Source: Candidatus Latescibacterota bacterium (GTDB lineage: Bacteria; Latescibacterota; UBA2968; GCA-2709665). Taken from it: a DNA stretch of 64,000 nucleotides. Positions 35,715 to 42,280 of this stretch are shown here, in pieces (the stretch's first letter is position 1; every line of letters begins with the position of its first letter). The notes beneath the pieces are model-generated. The model had not been told where the DNA came from. It worked only from the letters and a program-made list of their open reading frames with translations, and made no database searches. The DNA is taken from the NCBI GenBank assembly GCA_965116875.1, contig OZ220733.1, positions 2,240,001-2,304,000 on the forward strand, read 5' to 3'. A program made the translations under genes and the position numbers.

Positions 35715-35844
35715 CGATGGGCCCCAAGATCGGAGATCGACCACAAGAAAGCCATGTTCAGATTGACGAGTGCGAGCAAGACACAATTTACACCAGTTGA
35801 TTTGGCCAGGGTCTGGAAAAGTAGACATTCCTGACAGCGGCGAC

Positions 35845-36288
35845 CTAACGGTTCTTCCGTTTCATGAACCTGATTGGAGTCCCGTACGCTGGTCCGCTTA
35901 CGTCATTAACTTCACGATGAACTATATCCGCATTCGCGCCCATCTTGCTTGTCCAATGTCCATTCTCCAATTGTCTCGCCGCATGCGTCGGGATAAGGCG
36001 TCCATCATCGCTCAACTGAGCATACAGGGCGATTTTTTCGTAATTTTCCTCTAAGTCGCAGTCGTCACATTCCTGAAAATCCAATGATTCGAAAAATCCC
36101 AACAACGACTCGACAGATTCGTCCTTGTGTGTCTTTAGCGGCCAGAAAAAGGATGTCGGCCAGAGCCAGCAATCGTCAAAACCTGCAGCCCAGGCTACGC
36201 AGTTGTACACGCGAGTCGGCGGACTGTTAATCGAGTAATGAGCAGAATTCAGGTAAGGGAAATCGTCAGAATTCCATCTACTATCCAC
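35845..36288 (-). CDS. Papain-like Cys-His protein (DUF7689-like), candidate toxin/effector
   Basis: YNCVAWAAG, KIALY, PTHAARQ, WTSKMG and YG motifs; GTG start overlaps the upstream gene by 8 nt. Confidence 0.75.
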   Translation of the reverse strand: MDSRWNSDDFPYLNSAHYSINSPPTRVYNCVAWAAGFDDCWLWPTSFFWPLKTHKDESVESLLGFFESLDFQECDDCDLEENYEKIALYAQLSDDGRLIPTHAARQLENGHWTSKMGANADIVHREVNDVSGPAYGTPIRFMKRKNR

Positions 36289-36718
36289 TCTTGCCTCTCC
36301 ACCACGCGAGCCACGCTTTAGCCATTCGTACAGTCTTTCCGTAGTCTTCTTCCTGTATCGGAATCTCGCCTGTAATTTCGTGCAGGGCCATAAACCAAAG
36401 ATCGGGCTCTTCCTTGTGCTTTTCCAGGTCCTCCATTATGAATGGAAGCGCCCTTTCTCCCATTTCGACAATTTTCCGGTATGACTGACATTTGGCCATT
36501 GCAACTGGAGAAGACGTAAATCCTCGCTCTTCATGCCACTTCTGAACATGAATGGAAAATACGGCGCTATCAGGGAGGACGAACATCTCTGGATCGGAGG
36601 AATAGTAGACATCTCCATCAAACTCGTGGTGTTTAAAGTCAAACTCCGGAACACTATCTGTCCTTCCCTCCCCGTGTAGAACAGGGTGGGTCTGGGCACG
36701 AGCATAGCAGATTACCAT
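36281..36718 (-). CDS. Conserved hypothetical helical protein
   Basis: W..E..F.SS...Y..I..MG..ALP.I..L...WF.AL.EITG..P...G.....AWL.W pattern; ATG 1 nt after the upstream stop. Confidence 0.75.
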   Translation of the reverse strand: MVICYARAQTHPVLHGEGRTDSVPEFDFKHHEFDGDVYYSSDPEMFVLPDSAVFSIHVQKWHEERGFTSSPVAMAKCQSYRKIVEMGERALPFIMEDLEKHKEEPDLWFMALHEITGEIPIQEEDYGKTVRMAKAWLAWWRGKSG

Positions 36719-36719
36719 A

Positions 36720-36962
36720 TCATTGCTCCTGCGTCAGGGGGCTGCTATGGACGTTTATTATATTGTTGCTCTTGACAACGTAGATTGGATTCCCAGACTG
36801 GTCAAACCGATTTTCGACGCGAACGACTTCCTGTGGAGTCGCTTTTATGTTTAGAATCGTCCCGTCATCAAGGCGTATTTGGCTAAACCTCTCGACGGAT
36901 TCAATTATTGTAACTTTCGTGCACTCGACCTCTTCGTTGTTCAAATTAATCTTCGGCGACAT
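36720..36962 (-). CDS. Small beta-rich hypothetical protein
   Basis: ESVERFSQIRLDDGTILNIK...FDQSGNPIYVVKS; GGAG RBS. Confidence 0.72.
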   Translation of the reverse strand: MSPKINLNNEEVECTKVTIIESVERFSQIRLDDGTILNIKATPQEVVRVENRFDQSGNPIYVVKSNNIINVHSSPLTQEQ

Positions 36963-36998
36963 ACGTTTGCTCCACATCTGCCTGCGTGTTAAGCAGCT

Positions 36999-37280
36999 TT
37001 ACTGTGTTCTCCCACGGGCATTTTCGTAATAGGGACGCACGCGTTCGATGACTTCCGTGTCCAGTTTGCATTCAGAGACGATACGCGTGAATTCCTCTTC
37101 CGGCAAGCCGAGTTCCTCCAGGAACTTCTGGTCGGCCGGTCAGGGGTAGACGTAGTCTCCGATGTTGTTCCGCAGCATCGCCCGGGCCTTGTCCGTAATC
37201 CGCGGCAGCCAGGGGATACCGCCCATGGCGAGTGTTCTGCCTCGAGGGCGGAATTCGATGGAATCGTGCATGGTATCCAT
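36999..37280 (-). CDS. DUF5069-like selenoprotein (UGA read as Sec at 37140-37142), 93 aa
   Basis: MDTMHDSIEFRPRGRTLAMGGIPWLPRITDKARAMLRNNIGDYVYP-U-PADQKFLEELGLPEEEFTRIVSECKLDTEVIERVRPYYENARGRTQ*. AAGGAG RBS. The family-like sequence continues past the TGA, and a SECIS-like hairpin follows it. Confidence 0.8.
37100..37139 (-). promoter_or_regulatory. Bacterial SECIS element
   Basis: Immediately 3' of the UGA: ccggccgaccaga-agttcc-TGGA-ggaact-cggcttgccgg. The apical loop starts 19 nt after the UGA, with G at loop position 2. Confidence 0.75.
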
Positions 37281-37377
37281 CTGTTCGGCTCCTTTCCGAA
37301 TAGGGGTTGGACAATAAAAGAATACCGGTATGAGCATACAAAAGCAAGCAGATATGGGGGTCCGGCGCTCACCCGGA

Positions 37378-37950
37378 TCAGCACACGGTGTTGTAGATGG
37401 ATAATGAAGTGCCGCCGTAGGTCTTCCTGACGCACAGCGAAAGGTGTTGTACAGTCACAGGCGTTTCAAGGTCTGCAGCATGTTGAATGAGGATATGGGT
37501 GGAACGCGCAACGAGGACCGATCCGCTCAGGCGGGAAAGCATGGCAAGTGCGTAAGGAACGCCGTTGATTCCAAGCTGGTAGGGCGGGTCAACGAAAATC
37601 ACATCGAAAGGCCGCTGTTCAGACTCCAGCAACGGCAGGAGTCTTTCCGCGTGAAGGTTCGTGACGCGGATCTGTTTTTCCGCCCTCCAGTCCTTCAGCA
37701 GCTTCGAAATAAAGCGGTGCCTTCCAGGTTCCGGTTCGTTCAGAAGCACCCGGGCCCCGCGGCTGTACGCCTCGAGGCCGATCTGGCCTGAACAGGAAAA
37801 CAGGTCGAGAAAATGAAGATGATCGAGCCTGGCGCCCAGGATGTTGAATGCGGCCTCTTTGATCCTTGCCGGCGTTACGCGGGCGTTACCGTGTTTCCTG
37901 ACGTCAAAGGGGATGGTCCGGCCTTTGAGTTTTCCGGTGATAATACGCAT
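37378..37950 (-). CDS. rsmD: 16S rRNA m2G966 methyltransferase RsmD family
   Basis: MRIITGKLKGR, KEAAFNIL, LDLFSCSGQIGLEAYSRGA, DPPY and YG motifs. Confidence 0.85.
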   Translation of the reverse strand: MRIITGKLKGRTIPFDVRKHGNARVTPARIKEAAFNILGARLDHLHFLDLFSCSGQIGLEAYSRGARVLLNEPEPGRHRFISKLLKDWRAEKQIRVTNLHAERLLPLLESEQRPFDVIFVDPPYQLGINGVPYALAMLSRLSGSVLVARSTHILIQHAADLETPVTVQHLSLCVRKTYGGTSLSIYNTVC

Positions 37951-38031: not shown

Positions 38032-41028
38032 CTAGAATCCCTCCAGGCGGCTCAGGTCCGCAACGCCGTTGGCGAGAGAGGCGATGCGTTGAACCATGGC
38101 CAGGCGCGCCCGGCGTAGTACCGGATCTTCATCCATCACCAGGACGTCCTCGAAGAAGCGGTTGATCGGGCCGCGAAGATCAGCCAGCACCGTTCCAAGG
38201 GTACCGATCCCGTCATCCGAACGGTCCATTGAGCGTTGAGCCGCTTCCCATTTCAGATGCAGGGCCCGCGAGGAAGGATCCGGATCTGCCTCCGGATTCA
38301 GGGAATAGGATTCATCCAGGTCACGAACGATGCGCTTGCAGCGCGCGTATGCATGGAGCGTTTCCGACCAGTTTTCCGAGCGGACCATCTGATCGAGTCC
38401 TTCCACGGTGGTTCTGAGCCCGAACGGGTCGTCGCATCCGCCCCCAAGCGCAGCCTCGACAACGTCATGACGAAAACCTTCCTCTTTGAGCTGTACGCCC
38501 AGGCGTCGCAGGATGAACGTATACGCTTCGTCCAGCCGATTGGGTTCAACCCGGATTGGAAGCCCGGCCGCCGCGGCCTCAAGTCCCTTCTTCAGGGAAA
38601 AGTGACGGCGTCTCCCGACAAGCAGCGCCAGCAGGCCCAGCGCGTCCCGACGCAACCCGTAGGGGTCGGCGGTCGACCGGGGCTTGATTCCGGCGCAGAA
38701 CAGACCGGCCAGGCTGTCCAGCCGGTCGGCGATGGAAACCGCGAATCCGGACTCGCTTGACGGCAGTACATCGCCGGGAAACCGAGGAAGATAATGCTCC
38801 TGGATGGCCGACGCCACTGCGTTGGATTCCCTGGACAACAAGGCATAGTAGCGGCCCATCACGCCCTGAAGGGACGTCATCTCCACGACCATTCCGGTGG
38901 CCAGATCGGCTTTGCACAGGCGGGACGCCCGTTTGGCCGTAATCAGCTCTCCTTCGTTCAGGCCCAGATCTGACCCGACGACAGGGAGCAGTTGCTCGAT
39001 TCTCACGCTCTTGTCCCTGACGGAGCCCAGTTCGTCCTGGAAGGTGAGCGTATCCAGACGCGGCAGGTATTCCTCCAGGGCCTTTCGGCCGTCTTCCCGG
39101 TAGAAGAAAGCGGCGTCCGCATATCTGGCGCGAACGACACTCTCGTTCCCTCGGACGACCGGACCGGGATCGGCCGGCCGGCCGTTGGACACCGCCACGA
39201 ACCACGGCAGCAGCCGGCCTGTTTCAGGGTGTACCACGGGAAAGCAGCGCTGGTACTTCTTGAGTACGGTGACCAGGACCTCTTCGGGAAGTTCGAGATG
39301 CGACTCGTCGAAACCGCCGCGCAGCGCGAATGGCGCTTCGACCAGGTCGGTAACTTCATCGAGCAGATCGGGATCCTCCGGAACACTGCCGCCGACCTCG
39401 CGCGCCCGCTCGAGTACCTGATTCCATATGGCTTCCCTTCGCCGTTCGCGGCTGACGATCAGGCCCAGTTCCTCCATCTTCGGGCGATAGGCGTCTGCGG
39501 ACGCCAACGGAACGGGCGGATCGCCATCGGGCCTCAGGCCGCGGCTGGTACCTCCACTCCGGATCCGTGCGAATGGAAACGATATGATCCGGTTTCCGAA
39601 TAGGGCGACGATCCAGCGCAGAGGTCGGGGATAGGCGAAGCCGCCGGAATCCCAGCGCATCGTTTTCGGGAAGTTCAACCCGTCGATCAGGCCCGGAAGG
39701 TGTTCGGTCAGGACTTGCGGCGTTTCAAGTCCGGGCTCGTGGCGCCGGGCATAGACATATTCAACGCCTTTATCGTCCTTCCTGTGTTCCACCGAACCGG
39801 TCGAGATACCCTGTCCGCGGCAGAACCCTTCAAGTGCGCGCGTCGGCCTGCCTTCACCGTCGTACGCGGCCCTGACGGCCGGACCGCGGACCTCCCGCTC
39901 CCGGTCGGGCTGGCGTCCCTGGAGATTCCTGACGCTGGCTACAAGCCTTCTGGGCGTGCCCGTTATTTCGATTTCGTCATAACCAAGCCTCTGTTCTCGC
40001 AGAAGCTCGGGAAGGGACCGTTCGAGCTGCTCGATGCCGGAACGCACGTCATCTGGTGGCAATTCCTCGGATCCGATCTCCAGAAGCAGGTCGGCGCGCT
40101 CCTGTGAACCAACGTCCCCACCGGGTTTCGGAGCGTGCGCCTCCACGGTTTTCCTGATGAGGGGGTGGCCTGACGCTTCACGCTGTTCCACAAACCCTTC
40201 GGCGACCTGCCTCGCGAGGTCGCGTATCCGTGCGAAGTACCGCGCACGCTCGGTTACGCCTATGGCGCCCCGGGTGTCCAGCAGGTTGAAGGTGTGAGAG
40301 CAACGCAGGACGTAGTCGTGGGCGGGAATCACGAGTCCGCGGTCTATGGCGGCTTTCGCTTCGTCATGGAACAGATCGAACATGGACTGCAGGCGACCGA
40401 CGTCCGCGTGGTGGAACTCGTAATTGCAATATTCCACCTCCTGCTGCCGGAGAATGTCGCCGTAGGAAACCTGTTCGTTCCAGCGGAGTTGCCAGACTTC
40501 GCGAACGTCCTGCACGTACATGGCGATACGTTCCATGCCGTAGGTGATCTCCACGGGCACGGGGTCGAGCTGCTGGCCTCCGGCCTGCTGGAAATAGGTG
40601 AACTGGGTGATTTCCAGGCCGTCGAGCCAGACCTCCCAGCCCAGGCCCCACGCGCCGAGACCGGGCGATTCCCAATTGTCCTCCACGAAACGGATGTCGT
40701 GGTGCCTGCGGCTGAGACCCAACGCCTCCAGGCTGTCCAGGTAGAGTTCCTGGGGGTTGCCCGGCTCCGGCTTGAGAACAACCTGGTACTGCGTGTGCAT
40801 CTGCATTCTGTTCGGGTTTTCGCCGAATCGACCGTCGTCGGGTCGAAAGCTGGGTTCTACGTACGCCACGTTCCACGGCTCCGGCCCCAGCACCCGAAGC
40901 GCCGTACTCGGATTCCATGTGCCCGCGCCCACCTTTTCGCTGAGCGGCTGCCAGACGATACACCCATGATTCGCCCAGAATCGCTCAAGGCGAAGAATGA
41001 GTTCCTGGAAGGTCGTTTCGGCCTTCAC
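38032..41028 (-). CDS. glyQS: Glycine--tRNA ligase, fused alpha and beta subunits
   Basis: Alpha motifs ([35 protein letters not shown]) continuous with beta motifs ([23 protein letters not shown]). GTG start at 41028. Confidence 0.95.
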
Positions 41029-41077
41029 GGGCCTTTTCCTTTCTGTGTTCCCGGCGGACGATTTCCGATCGAGCAAT

Positions 41078-42280
41078 CTAACCCGACCCGGAGATCCGCT
41101 CGATGGGCGTCTTGGAGACTCTGGCTTTAACGATTTTCTGGATCTGCCTGATCGAACGCTCGACGTTCCTGACTTTCTTCTTGCCGTTGTGTACGGCAAC
41201 CGTAAGGTCCATCCGGCGGGTATCGCCGGCATCGAGGCTGACGACCCGGCCCTGTTTGCGCTCGAAAGGCTTCGGGTTCGGGTAGTTGGTGGCCGGTTCC
41301 AGGCCCGCGACGTACCCGTCTTCGGCTGCCGCGGTATTCTTCCAGAGCGTAAAACAGGGCAACTGGTTGAGCGAGCAGTGCAGGCTGGAACCCAGGTCTC
41401 CTTTGGCGTTCCTGAGCAAGATCGCCGTCTGTCCGCTGCCACGCTTTCCCGCCAGTTCATAAAAGAAGACCTGTTCGACAAAACCGGACTCCGGCGCCCC
41501 GAATTTGCCATATGTGGAGGCCCCCTTCTGCGCCGTGGCGTCTCTGGGAGATACGGATTTCACGGGCGCTACAAGGGCGCTGCCCTCTTCCAGCAGCGGA
41601 GGGCCGTAATTGCAGTGGTACAACATCTGCATTTCGGCGGGTCTGTTGTTGAGATTGGTAATCCGATCTGAAATGGTAAAGCTGTTGGATCCGGGCTCCG
41701 TGGAAATGTGCGTGGTCAATCGCAGCGCGGGACCGAACATCATGGCTTCGTCCACAACGCCAACCACGGTGATTCGATGCGGCGGAGACAGGTCGATGAG
41801 AACCTCGACGCGGCGCGCGGGAATGTTCGCGATCTTCCCGTGCAGGGGAAGGAAAACGGTGGCATGGTTGCCATTGTTGTCGATGACCACGTCGTTCGTC
41901 GGCGCGCCGTTGCTTTCCATGCCGCAGCGAACGATCCACTCGTTGAAGCCCTTCAGCCAGCCGAGGCCACCCCGGTCGTTGGCATCGACGTGGGCCGGAT
42001 GGACCAGGTCGCGAACGGGGGATTCCCAGCCCAGTGGGATACCCCGGTAGACGCCCTTCCAGATGCCCATGCCGCGTGTCGGTACGATCGTGAACGAGAA
42101 AGCGCCGTTGTTCACTTCAACAAGGTCGATACCCGCCTGCAGGCCGCCGTGAAGGGTTTTCTTTTGTACGCTCCACGCATATCCGGTCCCCAGCGAGAGG
42201 GTTTCCTCATCCATGCATCCGGACTCGACCCATTGGCCGCGATCCACGTCGGTCAGCACGTGACGAAACACGCCGCCCAT
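41078..42280 (-). CDS. DUF4432 family aldose 1-epimerase-like protein
   Basis: [11 protein letters not shown]....[17 protein letters not shown] and GLEPAT motifs; AAGGAG RBS. Confidence 0.85.

Follow-up and report, generated by a model that had tools for sequence, protein, structure and literature searches.

Among the prokaryotic selenoproteins, 119 families and subfamilies are listed with their domain identifiers in Table 1 of a 2026 review (PMC13188914), and the predicted single-Sec bacterial families of that table include DUF523, DUF1858, DUF3179 and DUF1573. As a general rule given in the same review, Sec sits in active sites, and the constraints on the bacterial SECIS element (bSECIS) set out in its Fig. 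2 comprise an apical loop of 3-9 nt, an upper stem of 4-16 bp, at least one G in the first two loop positions, a distance of 16-37 nt from the UGA to the loop, and an MFE of -7.5 kcal/mol or lower. The family PF16798 (DUF5069) is absent from the whole of Table 1 of PMC13188914, in keeping with an earlier reading of the present DNA, made from its sequence alone, that the protein considered here belongs to none of the classical selenoprotein families; it could still be named in the supplements to the primary papers. The NF- and TIGR-numbered selenoprotein models of that table, searched via NCBIfam, matched neither the protein nor a natural Cys form. No published function for DUF5069 was found by the literature search on DUF5069 or PF16798, which gave no match. 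Among the matches listed for 3OMD or Leptospirillum there was no mention of 3OMD; among those listed for selenoproteins with Latescibacter no title concerns the DUF5069 family, and among those listed for selenoproteins with sponge, symbiont or Poribacteria none was relevant.

The gene described here lies on the minus strand of the window, i.e., the whole stretch of 64,000 nucleotides of Candidatus Latescibacterota DNA that was analysed (Table 1), and it very probably encodes a 93-residue selenoprotein of a short DUF5069 form, the UGA codon 47 of which is recoded by means of a hairpin. In the list of open reading frames the locus is represented by a 65-aa ORF terminated by this TGA. When TGA is translated as U, the frame runs unbroken for 93 codons from the ATG to the TAA, with 46 further codons past the TGA, as had been claimed in the sequence-only reading, and the context of U47 reads ...IGDYVYPUPADQKFLEELGLPEEEF.... 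The ATG at 37280 is the likely start codon. No promoter was found by a scan of 36600-37500, and the two terminator-like sites detected in the same interval are both on the plus strand; co-transcription with the rsmD-like gene lying upstream is only a guess. The stretch of low G+C content just downstream of the gene, which carries three minus-strand ORFs, may be an inserted islet. Elsewhere in the window, the ORF of 1159 residues appears, by its sequence, to be a fused alpha and beta subunit of glycyl-tRNA synthetase, and its N-terminal stretch may reflect a start called too far upstream.

Table 1. Features of the selenoprotein locus and of its surroundings, in positions of the window.
Feature	Position	Strand	Remarks
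Predicted DUF5069-type selenoprotein CDS, 93 residues	36999..37280	-	ATG 37280..37278, Sec codon 47, TAA 37001..36999
Shine-Dalgarno-like GGAAAGGAG	37289..37297	-	8 nt 5' of ATG 37280; read from sequence
In-frame UGA, predicted Sec codon 47	37140..37142	-	motif Y-V-Y-P-U-P-A-D; aligns with the Cys of homologues
Candidate apical SECIS hairpin AAGUUCC-UGGA-GGAACUC	37110..37127	-	loop UGGA 37120..37117; starts 19 nt after the UGA
Whole stem-loop	37099..37139	-	lower stem CCGGC (37139..37135) / GCCGG (37103..37099)
65-aa ORF of the ORF list	37140..37337	-	terminated by TGA 37142..37140
Low-G+C stretch just downstream of the gene	35800-37000		G+C 0.46-0.50 vs 0.58-0.65 around
Small ORF in the low-G+C stretch	36720-36977	-	no Pfam family
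Small ORF in the low-G+C stretch	36281-36718	-	no Pfam family
Third ORF in the low-G+C stretch	35845-36288	-	DUF7689, E 8.5e-34
1159-residue ORF	38032-41511	-	Arg/Ser/Pro-rich N-terminal stretch of ~175 residues

With C put for U, the 93-residue protein matches Pfam PF16798 (E 1.9e-13; 51.2 bits against a cut-off of 27), which is the sole Pfam family above its cut-off for this protein. The match covers residues 12-82 and so spans the TGA, and since it corresponds to profile positions 4-74 of 133, the protein is a short DUF5069 form. Thus, the membership in the family, proposed earlier from the motif of DUF5069 proteins, was borne out by a match above the gathering threshold across the TGA. In the NCBIfam scan, the 93-residue protein had no match at E<=1, nor had P0007, a natural Cys form, at E<=0.01. 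A profile of close homologues matched the PDB entry 3omd_A ('Uncharacterized protein', 145 aa) at E 4.4e-15, with the Cys of the motif YTYNCPLDQ aligned to U47. When 1.84 billion representative proteins were searched with a profile, 694 matched at E<=0.001, and the best 150 of the 694 contain 169 domain matches, which at the Sec column hold Cys (116), Ser (26), a gap (13), Gly (4), Asn (3) or Ala (2). The UGA therefore occupies a conserved Cys column, as had been supposed, with Cys in 116 of the 156 filled domain matches, and the Asp three residues further on is kept in 153 of these 156. In the subfamily alignment, the conserved residues are P12, R13, R15, G20, P23, W24, L25, R27, D30, K31, A32, R33, A34, G41, Y43, Y45, P46, C/U47, P48, A49, D50, F53 and L54, and there is no second conserved Cys.

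Apart from the short form, the window's own genome encodes a 431-residue protein made up of three DUF5069 repeats (G000:C1:3074889-3076133; L001 1039-2334, minus strand), in which the Cys (YNCPID) occurs only in the middle repeat, the outer two reading SGLD, and the gene is adjoined by a creatininase-like ORF. The fusion partners of DUF5069 elsewhere, as found in ten long proteins scanned, are Cupin_2 (three of the ten), an AI-2E transporter, a methyltransferase, a dienelactone hydrolase, DUF2249 and the C-terminal domain of the CO-dehydrogenase flavoprotein; this spread is only a hint at a modular accessory or sensing role of the domain.

The codon at the Sec column was compared among the relatives of the gene. 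All 41 searched genomes of the window's order hold a match, and in the 37 orthologous loci of that order the column is occupied by TGA in 35 and by TGC in two. The scan, with one genome per species, found 227 relatives; the best 80 of these 227 loci, a set that overlaps the 37 orthologous loci and is not independent of them, carry TGA (61), TGC (14) or TGT (5), the loci with TGA reaching down to about 45% identity. By their record titles the relatives are chiefly Candidatus Latescibacterota MAGs, some being labelled Gemmatimonadota, Poribacteria, Handelsmanbacteria, Opitutales, Planctomycetota or Alphaproteobacteria, names that may be inaccurate for MAGs. Of 151 genomes sampled evenly across the phylum, 104 held an orthologue at E<=1e-15, all of the 104 falling within four families of one class, and TGA occurs inside the match in 91 of the 104 and is missing in 13, the exact column having been checked only for the fetched loci. 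Within the short-form subfamily the predicted Sec forms thus outnumber the Cys forms (61 vs 19 in the best 80 loci, 91 vs 13 in the phylum sample), and such a majority of Sec forms is unusual.

The full-length database homologues that carry a residue at the column have Cys there in 13 of 13 cases. Together with the 19 Cys forms of the 80 loci and the 116 of 156 domain matches, this agrees with the expectation of the sequence-only reading that homologues have Cys at this place and not Trp. In a quick tree of the 80 proteins, built with the Sec column masked, the exchanges between Sec and Cys number six by parsimony, at least three of them on well-supported branches. One Cys form bears the NCBI name 'DUF5069 domain-containing protein', and the shortened database forms are unnamed or called 'hypothetical protein'. 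The gene for selA was present in five of five genomes with Cys forms and in five of five further genomes with Sec forms examined; since the former retain selA, loss of the machinery does not explain the Cys forms.

The stem-loop reported earlier downstream of the UGA is indeed present, with the lower stem CCGGC/GCCGG, the upper stem (A)GUUCC/GGAAC(U) and the loop UGGA. When numbered from the U of the UGA, positions 17-22 pair with positions 27-32, and positions 23-26 form the loop. The MFE amounts to -21.5 kcal/mol for 61 nt and to -18.3 kcal/mol for 44 nt (37142..37099), and the apical hairpin by itself folds with -6.5 kcal/mol. The z-scores against shuffled sequences were -1.54, -1.94 and -2.44, with 12, 9 and 4 of 200 shuffles folding as well or better, which makes the single-sequence fold only modestly better than chance and weak evidence when taken alone; the case for the hairpin is therefore carried by the comparison with relatives. 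No Rfam family was matched at E<=1 within 36900-37400, as was to be expected, since Rfam is not known to include a family for the bacterial SECIS. By its form, the element agrees with every constraint quoted in PMC13188914 (Fig. 2), since the apical loop has 4 nt, the upper stem 6-7 bp, the loop UGGA a G within its first two positions, the spacing from UGA to loop is 19 nt, and the 44-nt fold reaches -18.3 kcal/mol; the earlier assignment to the bacterial SECIS rule thus stands as far as that figure goes.

In 54 distinct TGA forms, the helix columns are paired in 93.1% of cells as compared with 83.4% in shuffles, none of 500 of which reached the observed level, and the loop UGGA is invariant. 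The pair 18:31 is G:C in 40 of these forms, C:G in 14 and unpaired in none, with the switch lying between clades and coinciding with the peptide changes K-to-R and L-to-V; the counts are those of sequences and not of events, so that a single event, or a few, may account for the covariation. Among the 19 Cys forms, these columns pair in 70.7% of cells, with 18:31 open in 11 of 19. The loop G, position 24, is the third base of a four-fold degenerate Leu codon; all 54 TGA forms have G there, but five of the 19 Cys forms have C. Over the 80 loci, the 5-bp core helix with the UGGA loop occurs in 61 of 61 TGA forms vs 0 of 19 Cys forms, a difference comprising only three independent Sec/Cys contrasts on supported branches (sign test p 0.25). 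Two Cys forms nested within a TGA clade each carry one helix-breaking substitution, different in each, as would be expected after a recent change from Sec to Cys. The exact hairpin is kept in loci of 41-49% G+C (L124, L132, L135). The lower stem is without conservation outside the window's own genus, so that the comparison supports the apical part only, and some of the nucleotide conservation at the hairpin is due to the conserved peptide F-L-E-E.

The genome that contains the window (5.45 Mb, one contig) encodes the means for Sec decoding, as had been anticipated for selA, selB, selC and selD and found by profile, Rfam and ARAGORN matches, all above the curated cut-offs. Thus, selA (549 bits), selB (373.5 bits against a cut-off of 242) and tRNA-Sec (73.4 bits in Rfam; tRNA-SeC with the anticodon tca by ARAGORN) stand side by side at G000:C1:184347-187783, and selD (366 bits) is located at G000:C1:1070717-1071640 (L016). 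The selD frame, too, contains a TGA, in the context ...TCGUAAK..., with the GGUC loop of a 7-bp hairpin placed 17 nt further on, and by these features its product is itself a selenoprotein. TGA terminates 15 of the 35 long coding-like ORFs of the window, so that it is an ordinary stop elsewhere and no change of the code is indicated.

Against this background, it is improbable that the UGA is decoded otherwise than as Sec, be it by near-cognate read-through with Trp, Cys or Arg helped by the hairpin or under a variant code. Hairpins can stimulate read-through in general, and the database entry P0004 (96 aa) has W at the column (YIYPWGADKK). However, this W presumably stems from a gene caller applying a table with TGA as Trp to a metagenome contig, and the column holds Cys and never Trp in the natural full-length forms. 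A variant code is contradicted by the 15 of 35 long ORFs that end in TGA, and near-cognate read-through is made unlikely by the complete Sec machinery, by the use of the same device in selD and by the fit of the hairpin to the SelB-type model, as far as it is described in PMC13188914.

Still less probable is a genuine stop at the TGA, with a peptide of 46 residues and 46 downstream codons in decay, i.e., a pseudogene or a shortened gene. TGA is a normal stop in the window's genome, and gene callers do end proteins exactly at the column, as in three of 17 database proteins (P0013, P0014, P0018) and, at profile position 45, in 11 of the best 150 representatives. However, the frame past the TGA is open in 37 of 37 orthologues of the window's order and closes at a similar place, and the variable sites fall on the three codon positions as 21/15/30 over 30 codons 3' of the hairpin and as 17/8/34 over 35 codons of the upstream part. 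This pattern, which is that of coding sequence on both sides of the TGA, points to translation of the downstream part, and a decaying remnant would not be kept open under such constraint. Nor would TGA stay in the same column of a remnant in 61 of 80 loci, down to about 45% identity, or a hairpin persist only alongside the TGA. The Cys forms run uninterrupted over the full length of the protein.

Nothing was found in favour of an error of sequencing or assembly, with TGC or TGT as the true codon, and its probability is practically negligible, because two contigs from other sequencing runs, one spanning 36854-37301 (X2 record 8; three differences) and one spanning 37016-37325 (X3 record 14; nine differences), show no difference at 37140-37142 and the same TGA stands in 60 other related loci, which removes the doubt raised on this point in the sequence-only reading. 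The runs compared consist of contigs and are uninformative on transcript ends or the level of expression, and stretches left uncovered in X2-X4 carry no meaning. The RNA evidence is weak, the only metatranscriptome contig identical to the window being confined to 36836-37024, and the contigs of RNA libraries over 37113-37164 have 3-7 differences and come from relatives. Many contigs match only 37111-37164, that is, the Sec codon with the hairpin, at 85-95% identity; in four metagenome and metatranscriptome runs the summed word depth at 37108-37175 was 19-566 as against 3-16 on the flanks. The short contigs matching only this stretch come from other organisms, and the pile-up fits a strong nucleotide conservation among relatives.

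A comparison of the gene neighbourhood over the same 80 loci shows a single conserved neighbour in the window's clade, an rsmD-like methyltransferase gene (PF03602), which stands immediately upstream in 34 of the 80 and appears to be a housekeeping gene. In the other clade, 27 loci (13 Cys, 13 Sec and one without call) have two upstream genes without a Pfam family, one of about 125 aa and one of about 345 aa, the latter with faint APH/Bud32-like matches (E ~0.003). A gene for an FNR-like NAD-binding reductase (PF00175) lies downstream in 16 of 80 loci. The order of the cluster, observed at the loci L110, L115-L120, L122, L127-L131, L133, L134 and L137-L146 (e.g., L141 1581-5101), is the 125-aa gene, the 345-aa gene, the short DUF5069 gene, often the FNR-like reductase gene, and the genes for a GT2 glycosyltransferase, an ArgC-like and a TatD-like protein, the last two names resting on N-terminal sequence only; the 345-aa gene ends at, or overlaps, the start of the short DUF5069 gene. 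The window's genome has homologues of the 125-aa and 345-aa genes away from the DUF5069-type gene. At L147 (G000:C1:3259796-3263758) the 345-aa homologue is found between another ORF and a gene of the AIR-synthase/SelD superfamily, which is the weak selD match of the genome scan. This 345-aa homologue was considered as a second hidden selenoprotein and rejected, since the flagged TGA is its stop codon. The gene context does not settle the function of DUF5069.

The reading as a 93-residue Sec protein, proposed earlier for this frame, is supported by the Sec/Cys pairing, the hairpin linked to TGA, the open frame and the machinery genes; the actual insertion of Sec, its efficiency and all of the chemistry suggested below are what we infer. 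According to the proposed mechanism, translation would start at AUG 37280, and the hairpin, with its stem of 6-7 bp and the UGGA loop 19 nt after the UGA, would recruit SelB with Sec-tRNA(Sec), so that Sec would be inserted at the UGA codon 47 and 46 more codons would be read to the UAA. Sec47 would take the place of the Cys in the family motif Y-x-Y-P-C-P-x-D. A redox-active or metal-binding site at Sec47, as suggested in the sequence-only reading, is a reasonable inference. As there is no second conserved Cys, and as Sec sits in active sites as a general rule (PMC13188914), a single nucleophilic or redox-active selenolate appears most likely, which might form a transient adduct with a substrate or a partner.

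A broader, tentative and rather doubtful proposal is that DUF5069 is an unrecognised catalytic or redox domain with a single Cys or Sec, where Sec marks the active site, and that it takes part in a new small redox or modification system. The short form would then occur almost universally, and mostly with Sec, in one class of Candidatus Latescibacterota, and in the other clade, which is large, it would work with the neighbours of about 125 aa and 345 aa and often with the FNR-like flavin reductase.

Because Sec is almost always found at a chemically active residue, its occurrence in DUF5069 would give the first functional clue for a domain with a solved structure (3omd), and its position indicates which residue to mutate and which motif to study, Y-x-Y-P-C/U-P-x-D. 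The prokaryotic selenoproteome would gain one more family. The genomes of this uncultured phylum regularly have the gene wrongly entered as a hypothetical protein of some 46-72 residues, and corrected gene models would improve the annotation of Latescibacterota genomes, several of which occur in runs labelled as sponge metagenome.

In comparison with the known systems, the window protein has the motifs L-x-R-x-x-D-K-A-R-A and G-x-Y-x-Y-x-C-P-x-D in common with Pfam PF16798 and 3omd, but differs from them by its length of about 90 residues, the missing C-terminal third and Sec in place of Cys. With the entries for DUF523, DUF1858, DUF3179 and DUF1573 in Table 1 of PMC13188914, it shares a UGA aligned with Cys, homologues with TGA elsewhere and a candidate bSECIS directly downstream, whereas the protein family and the Sec motif Y-P-U-P are different. 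The selD element of the same genome likewise consists of an in-frame UGA and a short hairpin containing G+C, whose loop of 4 nt has a G within the first two positions, at a spacing of 17 nt compared with 19 nt in the DUF5069-type gene, but its loop is GGUC instead of UGGA and the stem sequences are unrelated. The gene is most likely an ordinary bacterial Sec-decoding gene in a family so far unlisted as a selenoprotein.
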